Shown here piece after piece: positions 1 to 16,289 of a stretch of DNA of 36,252 nucleotides. The notes beneath the pieces were generated by a model. It made no database searches. It saw only the letters and a program-made list of their open reading frames with translations, and had not been told where the DNA came from. The stretch comes from a virus: UHGV virus genome UHGV-0046263, one strand, 5' to 3'. Made by a program: the position numbers and the translations under genes. Numbering within the stretch: position 1 is the stretch's first letter; every line of letters begins with the position of its first letter.

Positions 1-70
1 TTTGGAAGCTGTGCTGTAAGGGCGTTAGAAATAGAGCTCTGAATTATTTATGCAGAGCGGAATAAAAAAG

Positions 71-116
71 NNNNNNNNNNNNNNNNNNNNNNNNNNNNNN
101 NNNNNNNNNNNNNNNN
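71..116. other. Run of N (assembly gap or masked sequence), followed by a 30-nt poly-A tract at 117..146
   Basis: Literal n characters in the sequence; the adjacent homopolymer is unlikely to be native. Confidence 0.9.
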
Positions 117-148
<32 letters not shown>

Positions 149-170
149 TGGCGGCGCCTTTACGGGGAAA

Positions 171-968
171 TTAGAACATTACCTTATGACCGTACTGCTC
201 AAGAATGCCTTTCACGCGTTCCATGGTCTCTTTCTTCGGTGGTTTAACACCATCAAGTTTGTATTCTTCACCCATCGCCACCCATTTGTGTTTGCCAAGT
301 TCGTGGTAGGGGAGAAGCTCGATTTTCTCAACGTTGCCCATATCACGGGTAAATTCACCGAGGCGATGCGCTGAATCGTCATCGTCAGACCAGCCTGGGA
401 CAACAACGTAGCGGATCCACACCTTCACATTTTTGTTCGCCAGATATTTGGCGAACTCCAGCGTGCGGTGGTTTGAAACTCCAACCAGATTTTGGTGGAT
501 CTCGTCGTTCATCTGTTTGAGATCGAGCATTACCAGGTCGGTTACTTCCAGCAGTTCATCAATCACCGGATCGTAACGACGAACAAAACCGTTGGTGTCC
601 AGACAGGTATGAATGCCTTCTTTTTTGCAGGCGCGGAACCAGTCACGAACAAACTCAGCTTGCAGGATTGCTTCACCGCCGGATGCGGTAACGCCGCCGC
701 CGGAAGCGTTCATAAAGTGGCGATAGGTCACCACCTCTTTCATTAAATCTTCAACGGTAACTTCTTTACCGCCATGCGTGTCCCAGGTGTCGCGGTTATG
801 ACAATACAGGCAGCGCATCAGGCAGCCCTGGAAAAAGGTGATAAAGCGAATACCCGGGCCGTCTACGGTTCCACAGGATTCAAAGGAGTGAATGCGACCA
901 ATAACTGACTTGGTAGCCCCCGCCGTAGCGGTATTTTCTGTTGTATTACAATTAGTTAAATTACTCAT
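171..968 (-). CDS. pflA: Pyruvate formate-lyase activating enzyme (radical SAM, glycyl-radical activase); host gene flanking the prophage
   Basis: Translation carries the CxxxCxxC radical-SAM cluster motif (CLYCHNRD) and matches enterobacterial PflA along its length as I recall it, ending GHKVMF. The ORF extends 19 codons upstream of the position I recall as the canonical Met, which is AAG here (909..911), so the start is uncertain. Confidence 0.85.
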
Positions 969-999
969 ATCGCTTCAATTGGCTCTAGTTAACTCTGGT

Positions 1000-1995
1000 T
1001 TATGGACGCATTATGGACATTCCTGACACCGGGTTAAGAGTCACAGCATCTTGTAAGAAATCCGGTGCAAAGTGTGCGTAGGTCATAGTTTGCTGAATGT
1101 TAGAATGACCCAGGATGCGCTGCAATGTGATTATGTTACCTCCATTCATTATAAAATGTGTGGCAAATGTATGCCTCAAAACATGTACTGCTTGTCCGTC
1201 AGGTAAATCGGGTTTTACTTCCCTGAGAGCGTTACGCACTTTGTAGTAACTGGCATTAAAAAGCCTGCCTGAATTTTTGGTCTTGATCCTTTTAATCAGG
1301 TCCTGCGAAACGGGAATTGTCCTGCGCTTTCCGTTTTTAGTTTTCATAAACGTAACCATCTGGTTAATGATGTGTTCAGCTTTCAAATTAGACACTTCAC
1401 TCCAGCGTCCACCAGTAGAAAGGCAGACCAGAGTTGCATTTAACTCATCACCATCAAGCATGGATAACAGCCGCGTAATCTCTTCACTGGACAAAAAAGC
1501 CATTTCTGTAACAGCTTCACGTAACCGCTTAACCTCACGGAACGGGTTGTGAGAGTGGTATTCACCGGCGTCAATTAACTTGGTGAACATCCCGCTCATT
1601 ATTGCCAGATGCCGATTTACGCTGGCTGGTTTTAGACCATCGTTCATCATTACAACTCGATAATCAGTTATCGTTTTCTTTGTTAACTGGTCAGCTCTGG
1701 ACACCCCCATTTCTGCAAATTTGGCGATTATTGTCGTCAAACGCCCCCGTTCAATATTTCCACGCTCATGTGATTTTCCGTGATATATCCACCATCTGCC
1801 TAACAACTCTGTAAGAGTTCGGCGGTCGGCTGGCTTCTCCAGCCACTCTTTGTTGTGGTAGTTAACCAGCACATGACGTTCGAATGCTTGAGCTTCACCT
1901 TTAGTTTTAAATTTCCGCCTGATACGTTTTCCATCTGCACCCTGCGGTCTGACGTCCACTTCATAACGACCATCATCGAGCTTTTTAATAGACAT
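1000..1995 (-). CDS. int: Tyrosine integrase, P2 Int family
   Basis: 331 aa; N-terminus MSIKKLDDGRYEVDVRP and C-terminal HxLRHTFATHF...ITLQRILGH...Y catalytic region resemble P2 Int; GGAGGG ribosome-binding site upstream. Confidence 0.9.
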   Translation of the reverse strand: MSIKKLDDGRYEVDVRPQGADGKRIRRKFKTKGEAQAFERHVLVNYHNKEWLEKPADRRTLTELLGRWWIYHGKSHERGNIERGRLTTIIAKFAEMGVSRADQLTKKTITDYRVVMMNDGLKPASVNRHLAIMSGMFTKLIDAGEYHSHNPFREVKRLREAVTEMAFLSSEEITRLLSMLDGDELNATLVCLSTGGRWSEVSNLKAEHIINQMVTFMKTKNGKRRTIPVSQDLIKRIKTKNSGRLFNASYYKVRNALREVKPDLPDGQAVHVLRHTFATHFIMNGGNIITLQRILGHSNIQQTMTYAHFAPDFLQDAVTLNPVSGMSIMRP

Positions 1996-2088
1996 AAAGC
2001 CCTCCGATGACGCTGTTTACTTCTACTACTTGAAAATTAATGCAATTTTCTTTCGTACATTTACTGCACACATATGCTGAATAAATCG

Positions 2089-2400
2089 TCAGCCAGTCTT
2101 TTGGTCTGAGTGGTGCAAGGTTGTTGAGTCTTGCCCAATGTGCGCGAGCGCCGGGGCTATTTGTCCGCCAGCGGGATCAGTTTCATCAAACATGAACCAG
2201 TCACGGTACTTGCGAAATCTTTCTGGCTTGAAAAATTTCATACCTGCGTCAAAAGACATCTTTACTTTTCCCTGCTCATATCCAGCATAGGTGTTGTAGT
2301 TAATTCCAGTTAATTCAGCAACTTGCTTCCTTGTCATTCTTTCTGATTCCCGAATAAGTGCGAGTTTCTCTGCTTGAGATGTGATTTGTGTATTTGACAT
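2089..2400 (-). CDS. C: Immunity repressor, P2 C-like
   Basis: About 103 aa from MSNTQ; HTH region (QVAELTGINYNTY) and C-terminal GQIAPALAH...QKTG resemble P2 C. Start chosen at the internal Met by analogy with 99-aa P2 C; the ORF could extend to 2448. Confidence 0.7.
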   Translation of the reverse strand: MSNTQITSQAEKLALIRESERMTRKQVAELTGINYNTYAGYEQGKVKMSFDAGMKFFKPERFRKYRDWFMFDETDPAGGQIAPALAHIGQDSTTLHHSDQKTG

Positions 2401-2504
2401 GAATTGTCGTATCTCGTAATTTATGTTGTATGCGACACGCCAGAACAACGCAGAGCGGCTTCAAATAGCTCTGGTTGAATGGCACCAAAGTTGAGGATAT
2501 CAAA

Positions 2505-2801
2505 ATGAGTATTGGATCAGAAATGAATAACGATGTTGGAGAAAAAGTATCTGATCTCACAAAAAGTAAAAAATGTGACATCAAACTTGCAGCCGCACCG
2601 TCGGATTTGCTCTCGAAAGAGGGTTTTGCTCTTTACATCGGTAAGACGCCTCGCGCTGTTGCTGAAATGGCGAAAGTAGGCAAGTTACCAGCCTTTTATA
2701 TGACGGACCCATTAAAGCCGGGCGGTCATGCTGAGTTATGGATTAATCGCCGTGAGTGGGACAAGTACGCAGCCCAGCTAGTTGATGAAGCTCCGACATA
2801 A
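2505..2801 (+). CDS. cox: Cox-like excisionase / transcriptional regulator
   Basis: Divergent from C; the KLPAFYMTDP...WINRREW core resembles P2 Cox; GAGGA ribosome-binding site upstream of the ATG at 2505. Confidence 0.7.
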   Translation: MSIGSEMNNDVGEKVSDLTKSKKCDIKLAAAPSDLLSKEGFALYIGKTPRAVAEMAKVGKLPAFYMTDPLKPGGHAELWINRREWDKYAAQLVDEAPT

Positions 2802-2805
2802 TGGC

Positions 2806-3042
2806 ATGACTGGAAAAATCGCATTAGTTACAGCAAATCAAGACATGGCCGTGCGGCTTAAGGTGGAAAGGATGAACGAGCCTCGTTGTATTGCTCAGTT
2901 ATTGCGTAACGAAAGCCCAAGGGCGATTGACTTCACCATTACCCACGGTAAGGGGCGTAAGGGAATCATTATCCGCACCAAAAAACAGAGTCCGTTAAAG
3001 AAGGCTCTGACCTTTCTGAAAAGCCGGAGGGTCTGGAAATGA
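2806..3042 (+). CDS. Small hypothetical early protein (P2 orf78 position)
   Basis: 78 codons from MTGKIAL, in the orf78 position between cox and B; start uncertain (2785 or 2806). Confidence 0.5.
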   Translation: MTGKIALVTANQDMAVRLKVERMNEPRCIAQLLRNESPRAIDFTITHGKGRKGIIIRTKKQSPLKKALTFLKSRRVWK

Positions 3043-3539
3043 CAGTGATGACGCTCAATCTTGTTGAAAAACAGCCAGCAGCTATGCGCCGGATAATTGG
3101 TAAGCATCTGGCCGTCCCTCGCTGGCAGGAGACATGCGATTATTATAATCAGATGATGGAACGTGAACGGCTAACGGTTTGCTTCCATGCGCAGTTAAAA
3201 CAGCGTCACGCAACGATGCGTTTTGAAGAAATGAACGACGTCGAACGTGAACGGCTGGTTTGTGCAATTGATGAATTGCGTGGGGCATTCTCAAAACGCC
3301 GTCAGGTTGGCGCAAGTGAGTATGCATATATTAGTTTTTTAACAGTCAGTCAGCGTCGCACTTTATTTATGCACGCACGACTGACAGAAAAAGAATTTAA
3401 CCAGCCATACTGGCGAATTAATGAAGAATCATGTTACTGGCGTGATGCTTTATTCCGTGCATTACGTGAATTATTCAGTCTGTTTGAGTATGCACCGACA
3501 ATTCTGACGTCGGTAAAACCAGAGCAATATCTGCATTAA
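3039..3539 (+). CDS. B: Replication protein B (helicase-loader-like)
   Basis: 166 aa, the same length and position as P2 gpB; start overlaps the upstream stop. Confidence 0.8.
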   Translation: MTVMTLNLVEKQPAAMRRIIGKHLAVPRWQETCDYYNQMMERERLTVCFHAQLKQRHATMRFEEMNDVERERLVCAIDELRGAFSKRRQVGASEYAYISFLTVSQRRTLFMHARLTEKEFNQPYWRINEESCYWRDALFRALRELFSLFEYAPTILTSVKPEQYLH

Positions 3540-3602
3540 GTAATTAACCAGAGTTTTTAACGCACTTAATCGTGCGGGGCTTCTTTTTGCCTGGAGAAAG
3601 TC

Positions 3603-3827
3603 ATGCATACAGTTTCTGAAAATCAGTGCGGTAAATACGCATTACTGCTGCAACAGGCCAGAACCGAAGCACAGGCCGACGCTGCGACGCGCTTTTCTTC
3701 TCATCTTGACGCCATGATTCGCCATATCACAAAGGCGGAGTTATCCCGCGTGGAGATAGTCGAGCTGCTCAGTCAGGAGTCGGAAAAATTTCACAATATC
3801 GGATTGTCTCGCGGGGAGGTACTTTGA
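3603..3827 (+). CDS. Hypothetical early protein (P2 orf80 position)
   Basis: 74-aa ORF in the conserved early operon, translationally coupled to the next ORF. Confidence 0.5.
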
Positions 3828-4126
3828 TGTCCTGTTCTCATTCAGTTGTATTACTGAATAACGCCTTAAAAATCGCCGTTATGAAAAATGGCGATTTGTC
3901 TCTTATTCAACTTTGTCTTGATAAAGAAAAACGCGACATCACTGAATCTGTTATCGCGATTTATCAGAATGAATTAAACCTCCTGTCTGATGTGGTCAAT
4001 TTACTTGTTAAACGCGCTGTATTCCACAAGCAAATTTCCTCAGTGGATGAACTGACAAAATTAACGACAGAACTTGCCAGTTATTGCGCTGATGTATCCA
4101 GGAAACTTAACGATAAAAGGAGCTGA
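3824..4126 (+). CDS. Hypothetical early protein (P2 orf81 position)
   Basis: 100-aa ORF; start overlaps the upstream stop. Confidence 0.5.
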
Positions 4127-4128
4127 TA

Positions 4129-4353
4129 ATGCCGGACAACGTAGATTTTATTCAGGAACAACAGGCTGAATTACTGGAGCGCCAGATTAACGCGGCAAGG
4201 GTAAAACATTGCGGTGCTTCTGCGCTGGTTTGCGAAGAGTGTGACGCGCCAATACCTGCTGCCCGTCGTGCGGCTTATCCGTCAGCCACGCGTTGTGTTT
4301 CCTGTCAGTCAGTCTTTGAAGCAAAAAACAAACATTACCGGAGAATGGCATGA
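4129..4353 (+). CDS. TraR/DksA-type C4 zinc-finger protein (P2 orf82 position)
   Basis: CxxC...CxxC spacing (CEECD...CVSC) visible in the translation. Confidence 0.6.
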   Translation: MPDNVDFIQEQQAELLERQINAARVKHCGASALVCEECDAPIPAARRAAYPSATRCVSCQSVFEAKNKHYRRMA

Positions 4354-4625
4354 GCATTCGTATTGAAATTGGCGAACGTTATGTCGTTACCAGTGACAGC
4401 TTTCAGTTTATTCTCCACGAGAAAAAGAGAGCGGAAAGCGGTAAAAACGCCGGTCAGGAATGGCTGGCGGTGGTTGGTTATTACCCGAAATTAAGCCAGC
4501 TCGTTTCCGGCCTGATGCATCACGATATTCTGACCGGAAGCGCAAAGTCTTTTGCTGATTTAAACGCGCAGGTTGAGCAACTCAGCAAGCGTTGTTCAGA
4601 GGCTTTTGGCTCATATGGCCGTTAA
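4350..4625 (+). CDS. Hypothetical early protein (P2 orf83 position)
   Basis: 91-aa ORF; its stop overlaps the start of A. Confidence 0.5.
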   Translation: MSIRIEIGERYVVTSDSFQFILHEKKRAESGKNAGQEWLAVVGYYPKLSQLVSGLMHHDILTGSAKSFADLNAQVEQLSKRCSEAFGSYGR

Positions 4626-6900
4626 AGCCTCCGGGCGTTTTGTCCCTCCGTCAGCATTTGCCGCAGGCACCGGTAAGACGTTTACCGGTGCTTATGCATG
4701 GAACGCGCCACGCGAGGCCGTCGGGCGCGAAAGACCCCTTACACGTGACGAGATGCGTCAGGTGCAAGGGGTTTTATCCACGATTAACCGCCTGCCTTAC
4801 TTTTTGCGCTCGCTGTTTACTTCACGCTATGACTACATCCGGCGCAATAAAAGCCCGGTACACGGGTTTTATTTCCTCACATCCACTTTTCAGCGTCGTT
4901 TATGGCCGCGCATTGAGCGCGTGAATCAGCGCCATGAAATGAACACCGACGCGTCGTTGCTGTTTCTGGCAGAGCGTGACCACTATGCGCGCCTGCCTGG
5001 AATGAATGACAAGGAGCTGAAAAAGTTTGCCGCCCGTATCTCATCGCAGCTTTTCATGATGTATGAGGAACTCAGCGATGCCTGGGTGGATGCGCATGGC
5101 GAAAAAGAATCGCTGTTTACGGATGAGGCGCAGGCTCACCTGTATAGTCATGTTGCTGGCGCTGCACGTGCTTTCAATATTTCCCCGCTCTACTGGAAAA
5201 AATACCGTAAAGGACAGATGACCACGAGGCAGGCATATTCTGCCATTGCCCGCCTGTTTAACGATGAGTGGTGGACTCATCAGCTTAAAGGCCAGCGTAT
5301 GCGCTGGCATGAGGCGTTACTGATTGCTGTCGGGGAGGTCAATAAAGATCGTTCTCCTTATGCCAGTAAACACGCCATTCGTGATGTGCGTGCACGCCGC
5401 CAGGCAAATCTGGAATTTCTTAAATCGTGTGACCTCGAAAACAGGGAAACCGGCGAGCGCATCGACCTTATCAGTAAGGTGATGGGCAGTATTTCTAATC
5501 CTGAAATTCGCCGGATGGAGCTGATGAACACCATCGCCGGTATTGAGCGTTACGCCGCCGCAGAGGGTGATGTGGGGATGTTTATCACGCTGACCGCGCC
5601 GTCAAAGTATCACCCGACACGTCAGGTCGGAAAAGGAGAAAGTAAAACCGTGCAGCTTAATCACGGCTGGAATGATGAGGCATTTAATCCGAAGGATGCG
5701 CAGCGTTATCTCTGCCGTATCTGGAGCCTGATGCGCACGGCATTCAAGGATAATGATTTACAGGTCTACGGTTTGCGAGTCGTCGAGCCACACCACGACG
5801 GAACGCCGCACTGGCATATGATGCTTTTTTGTAATCCACGCCAGCGTAACCAGATTATCGAAATCATGCGTCGCTATGCGCTCAAAGAGGATGGCGACGA
5901 AAGAGGAGCCGCGCGAAACCGTTTTCAGGCGAAACACCTTAACCGGGGCGGTGCTGCGGGATATATCGCGAAATACATCTCAAAAAATATCGACGGCTAT
6001 GCACTGGATGGTCAGCTCGATAACGATACCGGCAGGCCGCTGAAAGACACTGCAGCGGCTGTTACCGCATGGGCGTCAACGTGGCGTATCCCGCAATTTA
6101 AAACGGTTGGCCTGCCGACAATGGGGGCTTACCGTGAACTACGCAAATTGCCTCGCGGCGTCAGCATTGCTGATGAGTTTGACGAACGCGTCGAGGCTGC
6201 ACGCGCCGCCGCAGACAGTGGTGATTTTGCGTTGTATATCAGCGCGCAGGGCGGGGCAAATGTCCCGCGCGATTGTCAGACTGTCAGGGTCGCCCGTAGC
6301 CCGTCGGATGACGTTAACGAGTACGAGGAAGAAGTCGAGAGAGTGGTCGGCATTTACGCGCCGCATCTCGGCACGCGTCATATTCATATCACCAGAACGA
6401 CGGACTGGCGCATTGTGCCGAAAGTTCCGGTCGTTGAGCCGTTGACTTTAAAAAGCGGCATCGCCGCGCCTCGGAGTCCTGTCAATAACTGTGGAAAGCT
6501 CACCGGTGGTGATACTTCGTCACCGGCTCCCACGCCTTCTGAACACGCCGTAGCAGTGCTTAATCTGGTAGATGACGGTGTTATCGAATGGAATGACCAG
6601 GAGGTCGTGAGGGCGCTCAGAGGTGCATTAAAACACGGTCTGAGAAGACCAAACCGTCAGCAAAGAAACGGAAGCCCGTTAAAACCGCATGAAATAGCGC
6701 CATCGGCCAGACTGACCCGGTCGGAACGAATGCAAATTACCCGTATCCGCGTTGACCTTGCTCAGAACGGTATCAGGCCACAGCGATGGGAGCTTGAGGC
6801 GCTGGCTCGGGGAGCGACCATAAATTATGGCGGGAAAAAATTCACGTATCCGGTCATTGATGAGTGGCCGGGATTCTCAACAGTAATGGAGTGGACATAA
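4615..6900 (+). CDS. A: Replication initiation endonuclease A (rolling-circle initiator)
   Basis: 762 aa from the ATG at 4615 (P2 gpA is 761 aa); contains HxH-type motifs (PHWHMMLF) and a tyrosine-rich active-site region (GYIAKYISKN). Confidence 0.85.
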   Translation: MAVKASGRFVPPSAFAAGTGKTFTGAYAWNAPREAVGRERPLTRDEMRQVQGVLSTINRLPYFLRSLFTSRYDYIRRNKSPVHGFYFLTSTFQRRLWPRIERVNQRHEMNTDASLLFLAERDHYARLPGMNDKELKKFAARISSQLFMMYEELSDAWVDAHGEKESLFTDEAQAHLYSHVAGAARAFNISPLYWKKYRKGQMTTRQAYSAIARLFNDEWWTHQLKGQRMRWHEALLIAVGEVNKDRSPYASKHAIRDVRARRQANLEFLKSCDLENRETGERIDLISKVMGSISNPEIRRMELMNTIAGIERYAAAEGDVGMFITLTAPSKYHPTRQVGKGESKTVQLNHGWNDEAFNPKDAQRYLCRIWSLMRTAFKDNDLQVYGLRVVEPHHDGTPHWHMMLFCNPRQRNQIIEIMRRYALKEDGDERGAARNRFQAKHLNRGGAAGYIAKYISKNIDGYALDGQLDNDTGRPLKDTAAAVTAWASTWRIPQFKTVGLPTMGAYRELRKLPRGVSIADEFDERVEAARAAADSGDFALYISAQGGANVPRDCQTVRVARSPSDDVNEYEEEVERVVGIYAPHLGTRHIHITRTTDWRIVPKVPVVEPLTLKSGIAAPRSPVNNCGKLTGGDTSSPAPTPSEHAVAVLNLVDDGVIEWNDQEVVRALRGALKHGLRRPNRQQRNGSPLKPHEIAPSARLTRSERMQITRIRVDLAQNGIRPQRWELEALARGATINYGGKKFTYPVIDEWPGFSTVMEWT

Positions 6901-7053
6901 TGGCAAAAATTCACGCAATATTAGATAATTTCGTACTGTATATATTTAGTGTTATTGAAAAATCTCGACAGAAAGAGTTTTCTGTATTTAATCGTTGCTT
7001 GCAGTTTGGTATTGTTTACCATGATTGTTTGTTAAGTGCTTTAAAGGTGAGGA

Positions 7054-8892
7054 ATGAGCGAGTTTGATGTTTTTTCTATTTCAGTTGATGATTTTAAAAA
7101 AAGTGAATACGCCAGTATATTATCATCGCCAAGAAGTTATTCTCATTTTGATATGGAGTCTTATTTTGTTCAGTTGTTGTCATCTTACAAGCTAAAAAAC
7201 GATGTAAGTTCTTGGCGGCTTTGCTATTTATTACGTGCGTTGTTTAATTTTAAATTTTCTAGGTCTGGTGATATTATCGGTTTTGAGCCAAAAATCATTC
7301 TCTATCCTGAGAGGGGCTATAGGCCTTCAGATTATAAGGAGAGTTTTTCAACAATATTAACTTGTATTAAAGAAAACTCCGATAATCCTTATATTATATC
7401 TAGGGTGTGTGATGTTTTATGGATAAATAACCGTAAGGATATAGACTCTGCCAATAAAGCAATAGAGTCATATTCTCTAATGGTTAATGATGCTTGCGAT
7501 ACTTTAATAGAAAAACAAGAGTCAGGTGATATCCATATTTTTGATGTTGTTGACTGCTTGGATAGAGGTATCGCAATATCGCGCATGCTTATTGGCAGGA
7601 AAAAACAACTACAAGGGGGGATAGTTGATTCGACATTAAGGTTATATCATGTATTAATAGACTCTGGTATATTCACCGGTGTATTAAGAGTTTCTGAAAT
7701 TCTTTATAAGAATAATTTATTGTGTCCCTTGCAATTGGCTGAGAATGCAGAAAAGATAGCTGATGAGCATTGTGGAGCGTCTTATTTTGATGCAGTGAAA
7801 AAATTGTTTTATTTTGCGTCTGAATTATATGTTAAAAACGATATGGAAGAGCAAGGAAGACGGTGCAGAATTAAAGCGTCAGAAATAACATTGGCTCAAT
7901 TTGAACAGTCTTCATCTTCAATATTGAAGGCTCATTGGTTAAGAGTTGCTCTTGGCGAATTTAGAGCAATTGGTGGAATGAATGAAGAAATTAAAAAGAT
8001 TAGAGAGGAATTGAATTCTATTCGAGATCAAATCAATGATGAAATGCACTTCTTTGCAATACCAATGGATCTTAGTGATGTTATCGCTCAGAAAGAGCAT
8101 GTTTATAATCAATTGGATTTCTCAAGGGTAATTAAAACTTTAATTGCTAGATTTAAGATTGTAAGTGCCAGTGAAATTATGGAAAGAGCTCGTTCCGATG
8201 CTAAAAAACATTTTTTTCTTAATATGAGTGAAACGGTTGTTTATGATGATAGAGGGCGCGTTGTAGCAAGTCGTTCACCTTTGGATCCTGCGGGGGATAT
8301 AAGTTTAAATGATGCTTGTGCAAATTATTTAAGAACTAGTAACATTGAGCATCAGGTCTATGTTTGTGGTGAGTTTGAAGTCGTTAGGCAAAGTGTGTTG
8401 GCTAGGTATTCATTAAATGAAAATACATTTGACCCAATCTCACAACAAAGTGCATTTGTTCCACCTGGGTATGCAGAAATATTTTCTTTGGGGTTTTATA
8501 AGCTTTGGCAGGGAGATTATGTGTCTGCCTGTTATTTGTTATTGCCGCAATTGGAGAATTCAATTAGATGGATTTTAGAATTAAGAAGAAAAGAAACAAC
8601 GAAAATAGATGTGTCGCTTTTTGAGGAGGCTACTAGCCTATCTCAAATGCTTGCAAATTATAGGAGTGAAATGGAAGGTGTTTTTGATAGTGATCATGTA
8701 TTGACTATGGATTTATTGTTCAATATGAAAGGTGGTGCTGCAATTAGACACACGATGGCTCATGGCAGGTATACTGTAAATCATTGTTATCAACCAACTT
8801 CAGTTTTTGCCTGTGTCTTTATCTTTTATTTAACTTGTTTGCCTTTATTTAGTGTATGGGAAGATAAAGTTGAACCTTATCTGGCTGATTAA
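7054..8892 (+). CDS. AT-rich cargo protein, 612 aa, unknown function; possible C-terminal HEPN-like domain (candidate abortive-infection/defence effector)
   Basis: Strong ribosome-binding site AAGGTGAGG 4 nt upstream of the ATG; long uninterrupted ORF; AT-rich relative to the phage backbone; sits where tin/old lie in P2; C-terminal LENSIRWIL...AAIRHTMAHG contains an Rx4H motif. Confidence 0.7.
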   Translation: MSEFDVFSISVDDFKKSEYASILSSPRSYSHFDMESYFVQLLSSYKLKNDVSSWRLCYLLRALFNFKFSRSGDIIGFEPKIILYPERGYRPSDYKESFSTILTCIKENSDNPYIISRVCDVLWINNRKDIDSANKAIESYSLMVNDACDTLIEKQESGDIHIFDVVDCLDRGIAISRMLIGRKKQLQGGIVDSTLRLYHVLIDSGIFTGVLRVSEILYKNNLLCPLQLAENAEKIADEHCGASYFDAVKKLFYFASELYVKNDMEEQGRRCRIKASEITLAQFEQSSSSILKAHWLRVALGEFRAIGGMNEEIKKIREELNSIRDQINDEMHFFAIPMDLSDVIAQKEHVYNQLDFSRVIKTLIARFKIVSASEIMERARSDAKKHFFLNMSETVVYDDRGRVVASRSPLDPAGDISLNDACANYLRTSNIEHQVYVCGEFEVVRQSVLARYSLNENTFDPISQQSAFVPPGYAEIFSLGFYKLWQGDYVSACYLLLPQLENSIRWILELRRKETTKIDVSLFEEATSLSQMLANYRSEMEGVFDSDHVLTMDLLFNMKGGAAIRHTMAHGRYTVNHCYQPTSVFACVFIFYLTCLPLFSVWEDKVEPYLAD

Positions 8893-9053
8893 TGGAAGTT
8901 GATTTAGGTATTTTGGCATTTATCTTTCTGCGTGCAATATGTGCATGGTTTTGCATGTGCCGGAGTTGCATGTTCCGGCCGTGCGTCCGCCAGGACGGGC
9001 GTGGCTCAAAAGCGGTATTGCACCTGCATTAAAACCGCCCCACGAAGCGGGCG

Positions 9054-9072
9054 GGCGAGGCGGGGAAAGCAC
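9054..9072. other. cos site (19-nt cohesive end, P2/P4 type) within a GC-rich structured packaging region (about 8930..9110)
   Basis: Exact match to GGCGAGGCGGGGAAAGCAC, the P2 cohesive end as I recall it; flanked by repeated TTGCATGT motifs and GC-rich hairpins. Confidence 0.55.
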
Positions 9073-9110
9073 TGCGCGCTAAACGATGTCGCTGGCTTGC
9101 AGTTACCCGG

Positions 9111-9139
9111 TTGAAATTCTTATTTTTTTGTTGCATTAT
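9111..9139 (+). promoter_or_regulatory. Sigma70-like promoter candidate (TTGAAA, 17-bp spacer, CATTAT) upstream of the RT module
   Basis: Hexamers and spacing read directly from the sequence; no experimental support. Confidence 0.3.
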
Positions 9140-9146
9140 TCTTAGC

Positions 9147-9395
9147 GCACCAGCGATTCGCTTGGTATGCGGCAGTCAACAACATTAAATTGTCAGTTTT
9201 TGCTTTTACAAAAAAGCGTCCACTATGGACCTATCAGCGAGGCCCCACCGTCGTCAACTACGATGGTGCCGTAGCCGACGACATTACGTACGGTCGAAAG
9301 ATAGCAGAGGCTGTTGCTGACAATTGTTGATGTAAGCATCTCTGCTGTTCCACCCTTGAGTATGGGAAGACCGTACGTAACTTTGAATTTGAATG
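9147..9395 (+). ncRNA. Candidate structured ncRNA upstream of the RT (possible retron msr/msd)
   Basis: About 250 nt non-coding between the promoter candidate and the RT start, with hairpin GCTTTT-ACAA-AAAAGC (9202..9217), a 13-bp imperfect stem (9250..9262 / 9270..9282) and a perfect 12-bp inverted repeat TTACGTACGGTC / GACCGTACGTAA (9284..9295 / 9369..9380) ending 17 nt before the RT ATG. Boundaries are not defined. Confidence 0.3.
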
Positions 9396-9397
9396 GT

Positions 9398-10588
9398 ATG
9401 TTTATGGATAAATTTAAACCATACAGCAAATCCAATGCTCCTATCACAACACTTGAAAAGTTGTCAAAGGCTTTATCGATTTCTGTTGAAGAGCTTAAAG
9501 CTATTGCAGAATTATCATTAGATGAGAAATATACTCTAAAAGAAATTCCCAAAATTGACGGAAGCAAACGGATTGTCTACTCCCTACATCCTAAAATGAG
9601 ATTATTACAGAGTAGAATTAATAAACGTATTTTTAAGGAATTGGTTGTTTTTCCTTCATTTTTGTTTGGTTCAGTTCCCAGTAAAAATGATGTTTTAAAT
9701 TCTAATGTCAAACGTGACTATGTTTCATGTGCAAAGGCTCATTGTGGAGCAAAAACAGTTCTCAAGGTGGATATAAGTAATTTTTTCGATAATATCCATA
9801 GAGATCTGGTTAGGAGCGTGTTTGAGGAGATATTGCATATTAAGGATGAGGCTCTTGAATACTTGGTGGATATATGTACTAAGGATGATTTTGTCGTACA
9901 GGGGGCCTTAACATCAAGCTATATAGCAACTTTGTGTTTATTCGCTGTTGAAGGGGATGTGGTAAGACGTGCGCAGAGGAAAGGACTTGTTTATACGCGT
10001 TTGGTAGATGATATTACCGTGTCATCTAAAATAAGTAATTATGATTTTTCTCAAATGCAAAGCCATATAGAGAGGATGCTTTCTGAGCATGACTTGCCGA
10101 TAAATAAGCACAAAACAAAAATATTTCACTGTTCATCTGAACCTATAAAAGTACATGGTTTAAGAGTTGACTATGACTCACCTCGACTACCATCCGATGA
10201 AGTCAAAAGAATCAGGGCATCTATACATAATTTGAAATTACTGGCGGCAAAAAATAACACAAAAACAAGTGTTGCATACAGAAAAGAATTCAATAGATGT
10301 ATGGGGAGAGTGAATAAGCTTGGCCGTGTTGGGCATGAAAAATATGAATCATTCAAGAAACAGTTGCAGGCAATAAAACCGATGCCATCTAAAAGAGATG
10401 TTGCTGTGATTGATGCAGCTATAAAAAGTTTAGAGTTGTCGTATTCGAAAGGTAATCAAAATAAACATTGGTATAAAAGAAAATATGATTTGACGAGATA
10501 TAAGATGATTATTCTTACTCGCTCTGAATCATTTAAAGAAAAACTGGAGTGTTTTAAATCTAGATTGGCATCTTTAAAACCATTATGA
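9398..10588 (+). CDS. Retron-type reverse transcriptase (about 396 aa from the ATG at 9398)
   Basis: RT motifs in canonical order: LSKALSISVEEL, GSKRIVYSLHPKMRLLQ, CAKAH (NAxxH-like), LKVDISNFFDNI, QGALTSSYIATL, YTRLVDDITVS (YADD box reads LVDD), INKHKTKI, VHGL (VTG-like). Start uncertain (TTG 9314, ATG 9362, 9398 or 9404). Confidence 0.85.
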   Translation: MFMDKFKPYSKSNAPITTLEKLSKALSISVEELKAIAELSLDEKYTLKEIPKIDGSKRIVYSLHPKMRLLQSRINKRIFKELVVFPSFLFGSVPSKNDVLNSNVKRDYVSCAKAHCGAKTVLKVDISNFFDNIHRDLVRSVFEEILHIKDEALEYLVDICTKDDFVVQGALTSSYIATLCLFAVEGDVVRRAQRKGLVYTRLVDDITVSSKISNYDFSQMQSHIERMLSEHDLPINKHKTKIFHCSSEPIKVHGLRVDYDSPRLPSDEVKRIRASIHNLKLLAAKNNTKTSVAYRKEFNRCMGRVNKLGRVGHEKYESFKKQLQAIKPMPSKRDVAVIDAAIKSLELSYSKGNQNKHWYKRKYDLTRYKMIILTRSESFKEKLECFKSRLASLKPL

Positions 10589-11292
10589 ATGCAAATATTA
10601 GACTTCTCAAATATATTGTCGGTGTGTCGTCAGCTCTTTTTTTGATTTTTTCGCTAATTTCTCTTTTTGAAACTATTCAGAATGAAAAGCTATATGAGCG
10701 TGATATATGCTTCGATAGCCAGTGCTTAAAATTTTTTGCGGAAAAAACATCTGGTATAGTAATGTATTTTCAGGCGTTTGGATGGCTTATAACAACTTTT
10801 GTTACCGTTTTTGGTGTTATGATTGCTTTGATGACATATAACGCTGGAGTTAAAAATAATAATAATAGTAATTACACTAGTCATCTGACGATGTTTAGAG
10901 AATTTGCAAGTGCTGAGTTAACTAAAAGAAGTAGCATCTATCCAGAGAAAGTTAATTTTTTTAGATGGTATAGGGTTATGTTCCCTGAAGCGCAAGGCGG
11001 TGATATATCTGTTTCGAGAGATTATCTAGAAATAATATCTAGAATCAAATGTGTTATTGAGGAAGCCAATGCACATATTACAGAGGAAAATAAAGACTAT
11101 AAATATAAAACTCATCAGAGAAAAATGATGGCTGTTTTGGATGAAATCGGTATATCGATTAGTAATGGGCCCAAAAATATTTTTATTGAGGTTGAGAGTC
11201 AAATTTTGGATTATATCGATACTATTAATTTGTCATTTTGTCACTCCTCATCAGTGATAGAATTAAGTAGAGTAAAAAGGAAGTATATATAG
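10585..11292 (+). CDS. Two-transmembrane-helix protein, 235 aa, translationally coupled to the RT (candidate effector)
   Basis: ATGA start/stop overlap with the RT; hydrophobic segments IVGVSSALFLIFSLISLF and FQAFGWLITTFVTVFGVMIALMTY; AT-rich. Confidence 0.75.
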   Translation: MNANIRLLKYIVGVSSALFLIFSLISLFETIQNEKLYERDICFDSQCLKFFAEKTSGIVMYFQAFGWLITTFVTVFGVMIALMTYNAGVKNNNNSNYTSHLTMFREFASAELTKRSSIYPEKVNFFRWYRVMFPEAQGGDISVSRDYLEIISRIKCVIEEANAHITEENKDYKYKTHQRKMMAVLDEIGISISNGPKNIFIEVESQILDYIDTINLSFCHSSSVIELSRVKRKYI

Positions 11293-11294
11293 TT

Positions 11295-11323
11295 AAGTTG
11301 GCGGGATTGCATTCCGCCAACTT
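11295..11323. terminator. Bidirectional terminator hairpin between the 2-TM gene and Q
   Basis: Perfect 10-bp stem AAGTTGGCGG / CCGCCAACTT with a 9-nt loop, followed by an A/T-rich tract. Confidence 0.5.
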
Positions 11324-11334
11324 TATATATTTAC

Positions 11335-12354
11335 TTATAAGTTATAATCAAGGGATTTTATGACTTCCATATCTAACCATTCATTTATTGACTTTATTCT
11401 CTCCTGTAATGGAGTGAGTTCATTGCGGACAAAGACCTTTGCCACTTTTTCAATATCTCCTAGTGACCCGACATTCTCCGGCTTACCGCCCATCAACTGA
11501 AAGGGGATGCGGTGTGCGTCCAGGAGATCTGCGGCGCTGACTTTTTTGATATTAAAAAAATCGTCCTTCGTCGCCACTTCACTGAGGGGGATAATTTTAA
11601 TGCCGTCGGCTTTCCCCTGTGGGGCATAGAGAAACAGGTTTTTAAAGTTGTTGCGGCCTTTCGACTTCACCATGTTTTCGCGAAGCATTTCGATATCGTT
11701 GCGATCCTGCACGGCATCGGTGACATACATGATGTATCCGGCATGAGCGCCGTTTTCGTAATACTTGCGGCGGAACAGCGTGGCCGACTCATTCAGCCAG
11801 GCAGAGTTAAGGGCGCTGAGATATTCCGGCAGGCCGTACAGCTCCTGATTGATATCCGGCTCCAGCAGGTGAAACACGGAGCCGGGCGCGAAGGCTGTCG
11901 GCTCGTTGAAGGACGGCACCCACCAGTAAACATCCTCCTCCACGCCACGGCGGGTATATTTTGCCGGTGAGGTTTCCAGTCTGATGACCTTACCGGTGGT
12001 GCTGTAACGCTTTTCCAGAAACGCATTACCGAACACCAGAAAATCCAGCACAAAGCGGCTGAAATCCTGCTGGGAAAGCCACGGATGCGGGATAAATGTC
12101 GAGGCCAGAATATTGCGTTTGACGTAAATCGGCGAGCTGTGATGCACGGCAGCACGCAGGCTTTTCGCCAGACCGGTAAAGCTGACCGGCGGCTCATACC
12201 ATCTGCCGTTACTGATGCACTCGACGTAATCCAGAATGTCACGGCGGTCGAGTACCGGCACCGGCTCGCCAAAGGTGAATGCCTCCATTTTCGGGGCGCT
12301 GGCGGTCATTTTTTTTGCCGCAGGTTGCGGTGTTTTCCCTTTTTTCTTGCTCAT
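11335..12354 (-). CDS. Q: Portal protein
   Basis: 339 aa, position and orientation as P2 gpQ; start overlaps the P stop. Confidence 0.85.
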   Translation of the reverse strand: MSKKKGKTPQPAAKKMTASAPKMEAFTFGEPVPVLDRRDILDYVECISNGRWYEPPVSFTGLAKSLRAAVHHSSPIYVKRNILASTFIPHPWLSQQDFSRFVLDFLVFGNAFLEKRYSTTGKVIRLETSPAKYTRRGVEEDVYWWVPSFNEPTAFAPGSVFHLLEPDINQELYGLPEYLSALNSAWLNESATLFRRKYYENGAHAGYIMYVTDAVQDRNDIEMLRENMVKSKGRNNFKNLFLYAPQGKADGIKIIPLSEVATKDDFFNIKKVSAADLLDAHRIPFQLMGGKPENVGSLGDIEKVAKVFVRNELTPLQERIKSINEWLDMEVIKSLDYNL

Positions 12355-14126
12355 CAGTAAAACTCCAGAATGGTGGATGTCAGCGGGGTGCTGATACCGG
12401 CGGTGAGTGGCTCATTTAACAGGGCGTGCATGGTCGCCCAGGCGAGGTCGGCGTGGCTGGCTTCCTCGCTGCGGCTGGCCTCATAGGTGGCGCTGCGTCC
12501 GCTGCTGGTCATGGTCTTGCGGATAGCCATAAACGAGCTGGTGATGTCGGTGGCGCTGACGTCATATTCCAGACAGCCACGGCGGATGACGTCTTTTGCC
12601 TTGAGCACCATTGCGGTTTTCATTTCCGGCGTGTAGCGGATGTCGCGCGCGGCGGGATAGAACGAGCGCACGAGCTGGAACACGCCGACACCGAGGCCGG
12701 TGGCATCAATACCGATGTATTCGACGTTGTATTTTTCGGTGAGTTTGCGGATGGATTCAGCCTGAGTGGCAAAGTCCATGCCTTTCCACTGGTGACGCTC
12801 AAGGATCCTGAATTTGCCACCGGCCACCACCGGCGGTGCCAGTACCACGCATCCTGCGCTGTCGCCACGGTGTGACGGGTCGTAACCAATCCATACCGGT
12901 CGGGAGCCGAACGGATTTGCGGCAAACGGCGCATAGTCTTCCCATTCTTCCAGCGTGTCGACCATGCAGCGTTGCAGCTCCTCAAACGGGAACACCGACG
13001 CCTTGTCGTCAACAAATTCACACATGAACAGGTTTTTAAAATCGTCGGCGCTGTTTTCGCGTTTGAGCTGCTCAATGTCGAACAGCGTGCAGCCGCCTTT
13101 CAGGGCGTCCTCAATGGTGACAATCTGTCGCCACTGGCCGTCCGCACAGAGAAGCCCACCGGCAAGGGCGTTATGACTGACGTCGATTTCCACGCGTTCG
13201 GCGGCGCTGGCGCGTCCCCGGTTGAACAGTTCACCCGACCAGAACGGGTAGGCGTCGTGTGCCAGCGTGGACGGGGTGGAGAAATAGGTCGAGCGCAGGT
13301 GACTCTGTGAGGCCATACCTGATGCCACCTTACGCAGTACCTGAAAATTCGGGATCCAGAAAATCTCGTCGACGTACAGGTCGCCGTTATGGCTCTGCGC
13401 GGTGTTGGAGTTGGTGCCGAGAAAAATCAGTTTTGCGCCGTTATTGCCCAGGACAATCGGGTCACCGGTCAGGTCAACGTCAACCAGACGGGCAAAGGCG
13501 ATGATGTATTCGCGGAACACATACGCCTGCGTTTTACTGGCCGACAGAAAAATCTGGTTATGACCGGTTTTCAGGGCGCGCAGCAGCGCCTCGCGGGAAA
13601 AATAAAACGTCGCGCCAATCTGGCGGGATTTCAGGATATCGCGGATGCGGTGCTCAAGCCCGGCGCGATACCAGTGCAACTGATATTCGAAAGACTGCTC
13701 AAAGAAAATCTGCTCCAGCTTTTCGATGGCCTCGTCACTGAAAAAATTCTTTTTCGGTTTGCGCCGCCCGCCTTTGTTGCGGTTAGCGACGTTCGGATTA
13801 AGGTCTGCCTCGTTGCCGGTCTGGCTGTAGCGGTTGACCCGTGCCAGTCGTTCAATCTGGCGTCCCAGCAGGTCAATTTCCTTGAAGTCACCGCCGGTTT
13901 TCTGCGGTTTGATGATGAGCTGGGTCAGCCGCGCTTCCAGACTCATTTCGACACGGCTGATGGGGGCAACGCTGTCCCAGCCGTCGCGCTGTTTCCAGCT
14001 CTGCACCGTCGGGCGTTTCATCTGCAACATGGCGGCAATCTGCGGCACGGAAAACCCCTGCCAGTACAGCAGCGCCGCCTGACGACGCGGGTCGTGTAAA
14101 AGAGTGGTGTCTGTGGTGATGGTCAT
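12354..14126 (-). CDS. P: Terminase large subunit (ATPase)
   Basis: 590 aa from MTITTDTTLL (same length as P2 gpP); GAGGT ribosome-binding site; the longer ORF to 14156 is less likely. Confidence 0.9.
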   Translation of the reverse strand: MTITTDTTLLHDPRRQAALLYWQGFSVPQIAAMLQMKRPTVQSWKQRDGWDSVAPISRVEMSLEARLTQLIIKPQKTGGDFKEIDLLGRQIERLARVNRYSQTGNEADLNPNVANRNKGGRRKPKKNFFSDEAIEKLEQIFFEQSFEYQLHWYRAGLEHRIRDILKSRQIGATFYFSREALLRALKTGHNQIFLSASKTQAYVFREYIIAFARLVDVDLTGDPIVLGNNGAKLIFLGTNSNTAQSHNGDLYVDEIFWIPNFQVLRKVASGMASQSHLRSTYFSTPSTLAHDAYPFWSGELFNRGRASAAERVEIDVSHNALAGGLLCADGQWRQIVTIEDALKGGCTLFDIEQLKRENSADDFKNLFMCEFVDDKASVFPFEELQRCMVDTLEEWEDYAPFAANPFGSRPVWIGYDPSHRGDSAGCVVLAPPVVAGGKFRILERHQWKGMDFATQAESIRKLTEKYNVEYIGIDATGLGVGVFQLVRSFYPAARDIRYTPEMKTAMVLKAKDVIRRGCLEYDVSATDITSSFMAIRKTMTSSGRSATYEASRSEEASHADLAWATMHALLNEPLTAGISTPLTSTILEFY

Positions 14127-14192
14127 GAATACCTCGCCGTGATGAATACACGGCAAGGCTACTGAGTCGCGCCCTGCGATTCGCTAAGGTGC

Positions 14193-14198
14193 TGTTGT
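14193..14198 (+). promoter_or_regulatory. TGTTGT element in the P/O divergent late-promoter region (candidate Ogr-type activator half-site)
   Basis: Same hexamer recurs upstream of V (21374..21379) and FI (29711..29716); P2 late promoters carry a TGT-N12-ACA activator site. Confidence 0.3.
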
Positions 14199-14299
14199 GT
14201 CAGTGATAAGCCATCCGGGACTGATGGCGGAGGATGCGCATCGTCGGGAAACTGATGCCGACATGTGACTCCTCTAATCACTATTCAGGACTCCTGACA

Positions 14300-15154
14300 A
14301 TGGCAAAAAAAGTCTCAAAATTCTTTCGTATCGGCGTTGAGGGTGACACCTGTGACGGGCGTGTCATCAGTGCGCAGGATATTCAGGAAATGGCCGAAAC
14401 CTTTGACCCGCGAGTCTATGGTTGCCGCATTAACCTGGAACATCTGCGCGGCATCCTGCCTGACGGCATTTTTAAGCGTTATGGCGATGTGGTCGAACTG
14501 AAGGCCGAAAAGATTGACGATGATTCGGCGCTGAAAGGCAAATGGGCGCTGTTTGCGAAAATCACCCCGACCGATGACCTTATCGCGATGAACAAGGCCG
14601 CGCAGAAGGTCTATACCTCAATGGAAATTCAGCCGAACTTTGCCAATACCGGCAAATGTTATCTGGTGGGTCTGGCCGTCACCGATGACCCGGCAAGCCT
14701 CGGCACGGAATACCTGGAATTCTGCCGCACGGCAAAACACAACCCCCTGAACCGCTTCAAATTAAGCCCTGAAAACCTGATTTCAGTGGCAACGCCTGTT
14801 GAGCTGGAATTTGAAGACCTGCCTGAAACCGTGTTCACCGCCCTGACCGAAAAGGTGAAATCCATTTTTGGCCGCAAACAGGCCAGCGATGACGCCCGTC
14901 TGAATGACGTGCATGAAGCGGTGACCGCTGTTGCTGAACATGTGCAGGAAAAACTGAGCGCCACTGAGCAGCGCCTCGCTGAGATGGAAACCGCCTTTTC
15001 CGCACTTAAGCAGGAGGTGACTGACAGGGCGGATGAAACCAGCCAGGCATTCACCCGCCTGAAAAACAGCCTCGACCACACCGAAAGTCTGACCCAGCAG
15101 CGCCGCAGCAAGGCCACCGGCGGTGGCGGTGACGCCCTGATGACGAACTGCTGA
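14300..15154 (+). CDS. O: Capsid scaffold protein
   Basis: Starts MAKKVSKFFRIGVEGD as P2 gpO does; 284 aa. Confidence 0.85.
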   Translation: MAKKVSKFFRIGVEGDTCDGRVISAQDIQEMAETFDPRVYGCRINLEHLRGILPDGIFKRYGDVVELKAEKIDDDSALKGKWALFAKITPTDDLIAMNKAAQKVYTSMEIQPNFANTGKCYLVGLAVTDDPASLGTEYLEFCRTAKHNPLNRFKLSPENLISVATPVELEFEDLPETVFTALTEKVKSIFGRKQASDDARLNDVHEAVTAVAEHVQEKLSATEQRLAEMETAFSALKQEVTDRADETSQAFTRLKNSLDHTESLTQQRRSKATGGGGDALMTNC

Positions 15155-16286: not shown

Positions 16287-16289
16287 CCG

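Follow-up and report, generated by a model that had tools for sequence, protein, structure and literature searches.

Genes and Features at the Prophage-pflA Junction

The window, i.e., the whole stretch of 36,252 nucleotides that was analyzed, is occupied for the most part by a P2-like (Peduovirus) prophage body (897..36252) carrying int, C, cox, replication genes, cargo genes and the late genes up to D, with pflA at its left end. A P2-type tyrosine integrase of 331 amino acids (Pfam Int_N and Phage_integrase) is encoded on the minus strand at 1000..1995 with its stop codon at 1000..1002. Upstream of int, the immunity repressor C, a helix-turn-helix protein according to Pfam (HTH) and to the RefSeq annotation of an identical genome, is encoded on the same strand at 2089..2400. 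The RefSeq features of the identical lysogen run from int, the HTH repressor and Cox to D and OgrK; the P2-type int adjoins the C/cox lysogeny switch, and gene D and ogr are found at the opposite prophage end. Both ogr and attR are located approximately 360 bp past the end of the window. The integrase was found at least 99% identical to those of 20 Peduovirus phage records (among them pro147, pro483, vB_YpM_46, P24A7b, P24E6b, D8, 11W, 12W, and S164), while the next best match showed 60.7% identity. An Rfam search of the window yielded no hits.

The extended pflA open reading frame (171..968, minus strand) was taken from the list of open reading frames and encodes 265 amino acids, made up of a 19-codon phage leader, a lysine in place of Met1 and PflA residues 2-246. 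The protein carries the Pfam domains Radical_SAM (PF04055) and Fer4_12 (PF13353) and, according to the translation, the CX3CX2C cluster motif in the form CLMRCLYC. Its residues 21-265 are 100% identical to the crystallized E. coli enzyme PFL-AE (PDB 3C8F). RefSeq annotates the same 798-nt pflA coding sequence in the identical genome as WP_000067979.1 (265 amino acids), and the exact protein was found on at least 1000 contigs.

A sequence-only reading of this DNA had placed the int stop about 30 bp from the ATG of the extended frame, noticed AAG at the presumed PflA initiator codon, and described an upstream extension of 19 codons. All of this was borne out. The new ATG is located at 966..968 and is separated from the int stop codon (1000..1002) by a spacer of 31 nt (969..999, minus strand). 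At 909..911 the plus strand reads ctt and the minus strand accordingly AAG, in the exact place of the initiator ATG of prophage-free E. coli. The frame is open through the phage-derived leader (912..968, minus strand) up to the new ATG, with the translation as given before, and the leader is also present in the attP of free phages. No other in-frame ATG, GTG or TTG was found in the translation between the new ATG and the methionine of the cysteine motif.

Anatomy of the Attachment Site

In order to define the integration site, the attL of the window was aligned with attR from an identical lysogen, attB from prophage-free E. coli and attP from free Peduovirus genomes. As source of attR the lysogen NZ_CP095533.1 was used, the attL junction of which (window positions 600-1400) is 100% identical. 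A core of 13 bp, ACCAATAACTGAC (897..909), is identical in attL, attR, attB, and attP, with reciprocal flanks. Read on the minus strand, it provides the G of the start codon followed by TCA GTT ATT GGT, i.e., the last base of codon 1 and codons 2-5 of pflA. The same 13-mer is found in MG1655 at NC_000913.3 951066..951078. The crossover lies within 897..909. An extended imperfect core covers 891..913, with AATGcgCOREaTtG in attB versus AATGtcCOREtTgG in attP. In attP an inverted repeat, GTCA...TGAC, flanks CCAATAAC and might represent the core-type sites of Int.

The AAG codon at 909..911 is composite: its two adenines are phage DNA and its G is the first core base. In free phage genomes AAG, leader, and int are contiguous, and the leader closes there as an open reading frame of 27 amino acids. 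Homology to phage DNA starts precisely at the core. Thus, integration overlaps the 5' end of pflA, with the core covering the final base of codon 1 and the next four codons, and phage-side DNA supplied the new start, both as had been suspected from the sequence. Two observations would have spoken against this reading, a core outside pflA or the same upstream sequence in reference pflA; neither was made. Attachment site attR was not found within the window, which ends in the gap between gene D and ogr. The att core repeat expected beyond the window was located in the lysogen NZ_CP095533.1 (locus L002) at 1444..1456, followed by the pflB stop at 1650. The attR side retains the entire pflB-pflA intergenic region with the ATG and codons 2-5. 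In consequence, approximately 35.7 kb separate pflA from its native ATG, ribosome-binding site and promoter region, now at attR.

The sequence-only reading had left room for a natural variant or a reference annotation difference. Accordingly, AAG and the upstream frame would constitute an allelic form of pflA or a differently annotated start, with the prophage uninvolved. Nothing of this kind is seen in the prophage-free genomes, MG1655 included, which carry pflA of 246 amino acids with an ATG start preceded by the unrelated DNA of the pflB-pflA intergenic region. In view of the contiguity of AAG, leader, and int in free phages and of the onset of phage homology at the core, the probability of this explanation is close to zero, and the comparison of attB and attP ruled it out. 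Judged from the four att sequences, AAG and extension are the deterministic product of site-specific recombination and no chance feature.

Two direct TATGGAC repeats at the 3' end of int (1001..1007 and 1012..1018) were noticed by their resemblance to the P2-type arm-site consensus tgTGGaCa (PMC3448106) and are candidate P-arm Int arm-type sites. They are kept in other lineages. On the attR side, TGTGGTC and TGTGGAC were found by inspection at approximately 1375..1395 of locus L002. By inspection, predicted arm-type repeats hence flank the core on both sides.

Recurrence of the Junction in Enterobacterial Genomes

Of 5426 complete E. coli genomes, 405 (approximately 7.5%) carry the identical junction, among them those of GN02461 and MS 69-1. 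Extended PflA proteins with an equivalent in-frame leader were also found in Klebsiella (many contigs) and Salmonella. In an E. albertii lineage the integrase is 100% identical and the leader near-identical. Related phages with integrases of 76-80% identity and an equivalent in-frame leader were observed in Citrobacter, Scandinavium (three times), Pseudescherichia, and Rahnella. In all of these (E. albertii, the three Scandinavium, Pseudescherichia, Rahnella, and Citrobacter) the fusion comprises 265 amino acids with exactly 20 codons before pflA codon 2. The Salmonella variant has a shorter leader of 12 residues plus lysine and is still in frame. Most of the IMG/VR prophage contigs were trimmed at the int stop, leaving approximately 8 of 80 informative; a search with the 60 N-terminal residues of the protein gave short fragments only and yielded the Citrobacter and remnant variants.

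Across 9 leader sequences (DNA identity 63-75%, the near-identical E. albertii leader aside) not a single in-frame stop codon was found, compared to 24 and 27 in the other two frames. Composition-matched shuffles of the leader remained open with P = 0.13-0.30 per lineage. The leader ATG is kept in every lineage. The leader peptide itself is poorly conserved and its substitutions show no third-codon-position bias; therefore, only the open frame, not the peptide, looks constrained. The conservation of leader length and sequence could partly reflect attP architecture, i.e., IHF and Int sites and their spacing. All full-length loci retain an intact pflA body. A remnant locus with a decayed int (L012) shows a frameshift in pflA, for which an assembly error is possible. 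In another taxon, the PflA encoded at a native pflB-pflA locus is naturally longer at its N-terminus by about 20 residues.

Transcription and Translation Signals

Within the int-pflA spacer, a weak purine-rich Shine-Dalgarno-like tract, GAAG (973..976), is located 4 nt upstream of the new ATG. A purine tract occupies the same position in other lineages, and GAAG may serve as ribosome-binding site of the new start. A sigma-70 promoter-like match, TTAACC-16-CATAAT (1010..1037, minus strand), ends 41 nt upstream of this ATG. The consensus scan found 2 such sites versus 3.1 expected, i.e., not above chance. The Rahnella and remnant lineages share the match in this position, Citrobacter and Scandinavium do not; it is only a candidate for the promoter of extended pflA.

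As the native pflB-pflA intergenic region is now found at attR, the new promoter proposed for pflA in the sequence-only reading is probable. That reading had also considered a change in the anaerobic regulation of the activase. Native pflA expression is reportedly constitutive and driven from its own promoter (Sauter and Sawers, 1990), hence any change is likelier to concern the expression level than a loss of anaerobic control. No minus-strand terminator-like site was detected between C, int, and pflA (850..2550). In the free phage, attP is followed by a hairpin with a T-run; in the lysogen, this hairpin is found at attR. Against the background of P2 biology, Pc, the promoter of repressor C, would be the likeliest source of read-through into pflA.

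A Probable Phage-Supplied Start for PflA

Comparison of the sequences established the anatomy of the junction, the origin of its segments, its recurrence and the conservation of the open frame. Our working model, which we hold to be probable, is that lysogens make the 265-amino-acid PflA from the phage ATG on transcripts initiated inside the prophage. A PhiD145-type P2-like prophage recombined through the 13-bp core inside pflA and thereby brought int and the P arm of attP beside pflA; start codon, ribosome-binding site and promoter of the native gene went to attR, beside pflB. The P arm contributes its own ATG, then 19 codons and AAG, which continue in frame into a copy of pflA codons 2-5. 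As a result, an intact open reading frame is recreated, encoding PflA with a 19-residue N-terminal leader and lysine in place of Met1. Translation would start at the phage ATG. The transcripts would most likely stem from Pc read-through of the C-int lysogenic operon, because the terminator located after attP in the free phage moves to attR; a weak promoter in the 3' end of int may contribute. The extended PflA may well be enzymatically competent, judging indirectly from the sequence behind the leader, identical to active PFL-AE, from the prevalence of lysogens and from the natural N-terminal extension in another taxon. The literature that we found on N-terminally tagged PFL-AE does not say whether uncleaved fusions are active.

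Alternatively, the insertion might inactivate pflA or leave a severe hypomorph, with little or no functional PflA in lysogens and an in-frame leader that is a mere by-product of an attP constrained for Int/IHF binding and spacing. In line with this, a review describes pflA as "disrupted" by the ECA29 prophage (PMC13492144), the Shine-Dalgarno-like tract is weak, and no convincing promoter is seen. Moreover, the leader peptide is poorly conserved without third-position bias, L012 carries a pflA frameshift, and the fixed length of 20 codons could equally be a spacing requirement of the intasome. However, an inactivated gene accounts poorly for the absence of stops from the leader frame alone and for an ATG kept in every lineage. 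The Salmonella leader, shorter and yet in frame, argues against a pure spacing constraint. The body of pflA is intact in the full-length loci and here identical to the active enzyme. Furthermore, the junction is carried by about 7.5% of the complete E. coli genomes and by many Klebsiella contigs, a prevalence not expected for inactivation because abolished PflA would stop the activation of PFL, TdcE, and GrcA. Taken together, we regard inactivation as unlikely.

If initiation took place at or near the old codon, either at AAG or at codon 4 (ATT), the protein would be nearly native and the leader frame irrelevant. A G-rich tract, GGCGGGGG, is indeed located 7 nt upstream of AAG, and in the Rahnella lineage an ATG is retained at the old start position, preceded by GGGGGA or GGGGGT. 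On the other hand, initiation at AAG or ATT is extremely inefficient in E. coli, and the upstream frame is open in all lineages, for which an old-codon start gives no need. An old-codon start is thus very improbable.

Returning to the phage-supplied start, a more far-reaching interpretation is that a conserved "replacement 5' cassette" is built into PhiD145-type phages. Upon integration, PflA would thereby come under the control of the prophage in place of its native promoter and gain an N-terminal leader. This cassette would consist of transcription from the lysogenic operon or from a P-arm promoter, a weak ribosome-binding site, the ATG and approximately 20 leader codons. We offer this interpretation as a whole only tentatively.

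Pyruvate formate-lyase and other glycyl-radical enzymes depend on PflA for their activation, which makes it central when enterobacteria grow anaerobically in the gut; no other activase serves PflB, TdcE, and GrcA. A prophage family that is common integrates into the first codons of this gene and appears to have evolved a built-in substitute start instead of destroying it or targeting a neutral site. If the phage-driven, extended PflA were made in another amount than the native protein or had another activity, fermentation would change upon lysogeny in a considerable share of natural strains. Should the cassette interpretation be true, about 7% of E. coli would run mixed-acid fermentation on a phage-tuned amount or form of the activase, as would many Klebsiella, Salmonella, Citrobacter, and Rahnella strains, reversibly upon excision. 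The 265-amino-acid "PflA" of the databases is a prophage junction product.

Comparison With Known Integration Systems

The pflA junction is a real, common and already mapped phage attachment site and no quirk of sequencing or annotation. In older MG1655 numbering pflA presumably spans 949563..950303, offset from NC_000913.3 by approximately 778 bp. For the P2-like coliphages PhiD145 and PhiD160 (Karlsson et al., 2006; Mandali et al., 2010) attB is listed at MG1655 950293 (Nilsson and Haggard-Ljungquist, 2011, PMC3448106). On the assumed older numbering, this position corresponds to pflA codon 4, inside the present core. The present prophage resembles these phages in its P2-type integrase, the int-C-cox switch and the attB position, the last matched by the listed coordinate, and differs in having its own cargo set. 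The int/attP sequence of PhiD145 is represented by partial records (AM158280, AM159077, AJ298559).

For ECA29, a P2-like prophage of Pectobacterium atrosepticum, the integration-site identity is listed as the same as for PhiD145 (PMC3448106). As ECA29 was reported to be inserted in a "disrupted" pflA (Evans et al., 2010, as cited in PMC13492144), pflA as the PhiD145 site is corroborated. Our literature search for pflA in combination with P2-like, ECA29, attB or prophage retrieved only a review. In contrast to the disruption described there for ECA29, the extended frame is intact here and in eight other lineages; "disrupted" may be wrong here, and the label "pflA disrupted" for ECA29 would need revision if the cassette interpretation is true.

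A related case is the HK022 prophage at torS, where a phage-encoded promoter drives transcription of the host gene (Carey et al., 2019, PMC6814406). Among natural E. coli, prophages at this site are likewise widespread. In both cases a host gene of anaerobic metabolism is cut off from its native promoter by a prophage. At torS, the coding sequence is untouched and the transcription effect was shown experimentally, whereas at pflA the prophage exchanges the start codon and adds an N-terminal leader, and transcription from the prophage is deduced.

Integration with reconstitution of a gene end is established for phage 21 and e14 in icd and for phages in the 3' ends of tRNA and tmRNA genes. Phages 186 and HP1 are examples for tRNA sites (PMC3448106). 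As at pflA, the core is located inside the gene, the phage arm replaces the lost end and the gene stays complete. However, at icd and the tRNA genes the 3' end is replaced, while promoter and start are kept. The pflA junction represents the rare 5'-end counterpart of this reconstitution, in which the phage must also supply the signals for initiation of transcription and translation.

Integration of the Prophage Replaces the Initiation Region of pflA

The pflA gene was found as a 265-aa ORF on the minus strand (171..968), and the integrase gene int (331 aa, 1000..1995) lies on the same strand. A spacer of 31 nt separates the stop codon of int (1000..1002) from the ATG of the long pflA ORF (966..968). 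The usual start position of PflA (M-SVIGRIH...) falls exactly at 909..911, where plus-strand ctt gives an AAG (Lys) codon, and 19 further codons are translated upstream of it, back to the ATG. Every feature described in the sequence-only reading was recovered at its coordinates in the sequence and the ORF list. Residues 21-265 showed 100% identity to the E. coli PFL-activating enzyme (PDB 3C8F), and radical-SAM domains were assigned to the extended PflA by Pfam. As no other in-frame ATG, GTG or TTG occurs from the new ATG to the Met within the CX3CX2C motif, any PflA made in lysogens must be initiated from the phage ATG. A start at AAG or ATT is unlikely and would leave the upstream open frame unexplained. 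Beyond the 3' end of pflA, the window contains an N run (71..116) and ~30 A (117..146), followed by ggtggcggcgcc, and E. coli GN02461 has the pflA terminator hairpin gcggcaactcaaaaaagttgccgc in place of the N/A run. The stretch 71..146 looks masked or altered and is not interpretable, and the ORF 50..247 across it is an artefact.

The junction (attL) was aligned with the far prophage end (attR) from the lysogen NZ_CP095533.1, the prophage-free site (attB) from E. coli C4, checked also in MG1655, and the free-phage site (attP) from the genome of Peduovirus P24A7b. All four sites share the 13-bp core ACCAATAACTGAC (897..909), and their flanks are swapped reciprocally. The core comprises the last base of the start codon and codons 2-5 (G TCA GTT ATT GGT on the pflA strand); it is flanked by imperfect similarity (attB AATGcg-core-aTtG versus attP AATGtc-core-tTgG). 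The first two bases (AT) of the native start codon have moved to attR, together with the ribosome-binding site and the entire pflB-pflA intergenic region. The AA of the AAG is of phage origin, as is the 19-codon leader that opens with the new ATG; both are present in attP. In free-phage DNA this ATG begins a frame of 27 codons, so that pflA codons 2-5 are already present, as an in-frame copy, on the phage arm. By integrating site-specifically within pflA codons 1-5, the prophage swaps the initiation region for phage DNA and recreates a complete pflA ORF. The earlier proposal that integration overlaps the 5' end of pflA, with phage DNA supplying a new start, is upheld by this comparison: the prophage-free pflB-pflA regions of C4 and MG1655 differ upstream and have the native ATG, and the core shared by attL and attR, the latter beyond the window in NZ_CP095533.1, lies inside pflA. 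A natural variant or a reference annotation difference, considered at that stage as well, was ruled out by the att comparison.

Candidate arm sites, similar in sequence to the P2-type arm-site consensus tgTGGaCa (PMC3448106), occur as two copies of TATGGAC (1001..1018) and, at the attR end, as TGTGGTC/TGTGGAC. At attR (L002, the sequence from NZ_CP095533.1, 1444..1475) the displaced start of pflA persists, from its native promoter region and ribosome-binding site to the ATG and codons 2-5. This fragment heads an 8-codon stub (MSVIGDIF, then stop) pointing into the prophage, antisense to ogr, and a hairpin after ogr with T-rich tails on both strands may halt its transcription.

Recurrence and Cargo Genes of the Prophage

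Using window 600-1400 as query and a match over at least 80% of its length as threshold, the junction was found in 405 of 5426 complete E. coli genomes, 7 of them, including NZ_CP095533.1, at 100% identity. The RefSeq annotation of this genome has the same 798-nt pflA (WP_000067979.1), followed by genes for a tyrosine integrase, an HTH repressor and Cox; after ~35 kb it reaches gene D and OgrK, with pflB-focA-ycaO behind them. This gene order at both ends places the prophage between pflB and pflA. The window stops between gene D and ogr, which puts attR ~360 bp past its end. A second N run (35514..35620) falls within the late-control gene D and splits its ORF in the ORF list.

The P2 cargo hotspot, bounded by the replication and portal genes, carries a retron-type defence module (9314..11292, plus strand) with a reverse transcriptase (PADLOC RT_IV, 1e-176; Pfam RVT_1) and a 2TM effector (PADLOC 2TM_IV, 4e-85); no msr/msd RNA was found in the window with Rfam. 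In the same hotspot, a 612-aa DUF7380 protein (7054..8892, plus strand) gave matches to phrog_5183, function unknown, and to PDC-S39 (2e-68), a candidate defence family in PADLOC. Between the tail-fibre and tail-sheath regions lie two further cargo ORFs (26653..27714, plus strand; 28238..29380, minus strand), both assigned to PHROG families without known function. A weak Lit/peptidase U49 match (PADLOC 7e-11, Pfam 4e-7) was obtained for one of them; the other has an endonuclease-effector-like domain at its N terminus (PDC-M68A, 1e-23) that matches CBASS and SduA-type effectors. Embedded among late genes are two opposite-strand ORFs of 261 and 128 aa (20572..21743, minus strand), for which Pfam and PADLOC yielded no match; the 261-aa ORF belongs to phrog_2407, function unknown.

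Leaders in Related Phages

Related integrases were gathered from other species, and loci were used where sequence 3' of int was available and the phage was at pflA. These came from E. albertii (Int 100% identical), Pseudescherichia vulneris (80%), Citrobacter portucalensis (79%), Rahnella ecdela (76%), three Scandinavium species and several IMG/VR prophages. At all usable pflA loci the fusion ORF has 265 aa, with exactly 20 codons ahead of pflA codon 2; most lineages have Lys at position 20, the Rahnella lineage Met. Native Pseudescherichia PflA starts MSVIGRIH, so the K-P found in its lysogen is phage-supplied. Exact-sequence and cluster look-ups yielded the same leader on the Klebsiella pneumoniae PflA body in 336 contigs, and two Salmonella variants, MSNLNDCIKKENTAAAAEKK-PIIGRIH and the shorter MTNESVAVTADKK-PVIGRIH. 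Leader DNA is 63-75% identical to that of E. coli, E. albertii excepted (59/60 nt), and the peptides diverge widely past MSNLT-C.

Two other retrieved loci deserve mention. In L014 (metagenome scaffold, 1175..1459) a native pflB-pflA of another taxon encodes a PflA with a natural ~20-residue extension, MSTTQKTIPTTEISTTSPPAT-FGRIH, unrelated in sequence to the phage leader, which suggests that N-terminal extensions of PflA can be tolerated. In L012 (Logan SRR2175557 contig, 1800..2841) the integrase has decayed to a mere fragment (42% identity over 66 aa), but pflA is still fused to a leader of the phage type, MNKITDCITTDPSDLVEDKK. The locus appears to be a grounded remnant with pflA permanently dependent on the phage-derived start. 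A 1-nt frameshift in its assembled pflA could be an error or indicate a pseudogene.

Predicted Expression of the Extended pflA

The extended PflA would be translated from the ATG at 966..968, preceded at a distance of 4 nt by a weak purine-rich tract (GAAG, 973..976); similar tracts occur in other lineages. Its transcription in the lysogen would originate in the prophage. No terminator-like structure was found on the minus strand from the repressor gene through int to pflA, and the hairpin with T-run following attP in the free phage is located at attR in the lysogen. In P2, int is reportedly co-transcribed with the immunity repressor gene C from its promoter Pc, and the transcript crosses attP; by analogy, a lysogenic C-int transcript would be expected to run on into pflA. 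A promoter-like TTAACC-16-CATAAT (1037..1010), located between the two arm repeats, is a candidate promoter only: the match does not exceed chance expectation, and only some lineages have it (E. coli, Rahnella and the remnant, not Citrobacter or Scandinavium). A possible change in anaerobic regulation was raised in the sequence-only reading; since the native pflA promoter is reported to be constitutive, an altered expression level would be more plausible than a loss of oxygen control. According to a published paper, this promoter is separate from that of focA-pflB.

The only serious rival is a simple inactivation of pflA, with a fortuitous ORF. It agrees with the weak initiation signals, the frameshifted pflA and decayed int of the remnant locus, and the word "disrupted" used for the Pectobacterium prophage ECA29 in a review. 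Moreover, leader substitutions are not concentrated at third codon positions, so what is conserved is the ATG and an open frame, no particular peptide. However, a fortuitous ORF fits poorly with the distribution of stops across nine leader sequences, 0 in frame versus 24 and 27 in the other two frames. In composition-matched shuffles the probability of an open frame was 0.13-0.30 per lineage, or ~6 x 10^-4 for five lineages taken as independent, an optimistic figure given their shared ancestry. The ATG is invariant across lineages, the Salmonella leader of different length is still in frame, the pflA bodies are intact and lysogens are highly prevalent, all of which weakens the case for inactivation. 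The phage-supplied start and transcription may alter the amount or properties of the activase in lysogens, which make up ~7% of E. coli and occur among other enterobacteria as well.

Comparison With Known Systems

This recurrent feature is an attachment site of PhiD145-type P2-like phages that had been mapped before. For the P2-like coliphages PhiD145 and PhiD160 the site was given as MG1655 950293, and ECA29 was assigned the same site identity (Nilsson and Haggard-Ljungquist, 2011; PMC3448106). The current MG1655 record has the core at 951066..951078 and pflA at 950340..951080. With a shift of ~778 bp between genome versions taken into account, the published position lies within the core, in pflA codon 4, and thus matches the site found here. 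ECA29, listed with this site identity, is likewise reported in pflA, having "disrupted the pflA gene" in the wording of a 2026 review citing Evans et al. Furthermore, 20 sequenced phages carry an Int at least 99% identical to that of the window, including pro147, pro483, vB_YpM_46, P24A7b, D8, 11W, 12W and S164. Given these integrases and the published site, the integration site and the phage type are already known; as the extended PflA is also already present in RefSeq, novelty is low. In the literature searched, no explicit statement of a phage arm rebuilding pflA with a conserved in-frame start was found; the primary PhiD145 papers may contain one. Integrations that reconstitute gene ends occur at tRNA 3' ends and at icd with phage 21 and e14. 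They are the closest structural analogues; however, they replace 3' ends, whereas at pflA the 5' end is replaced. Among systems studied by experiment, HK022 at torS comes closest in mechanism: a host gene of anaerobic respiration is there transcribed from a prophage promoter instead of its own (PMC6814406), as we propose for pflA.
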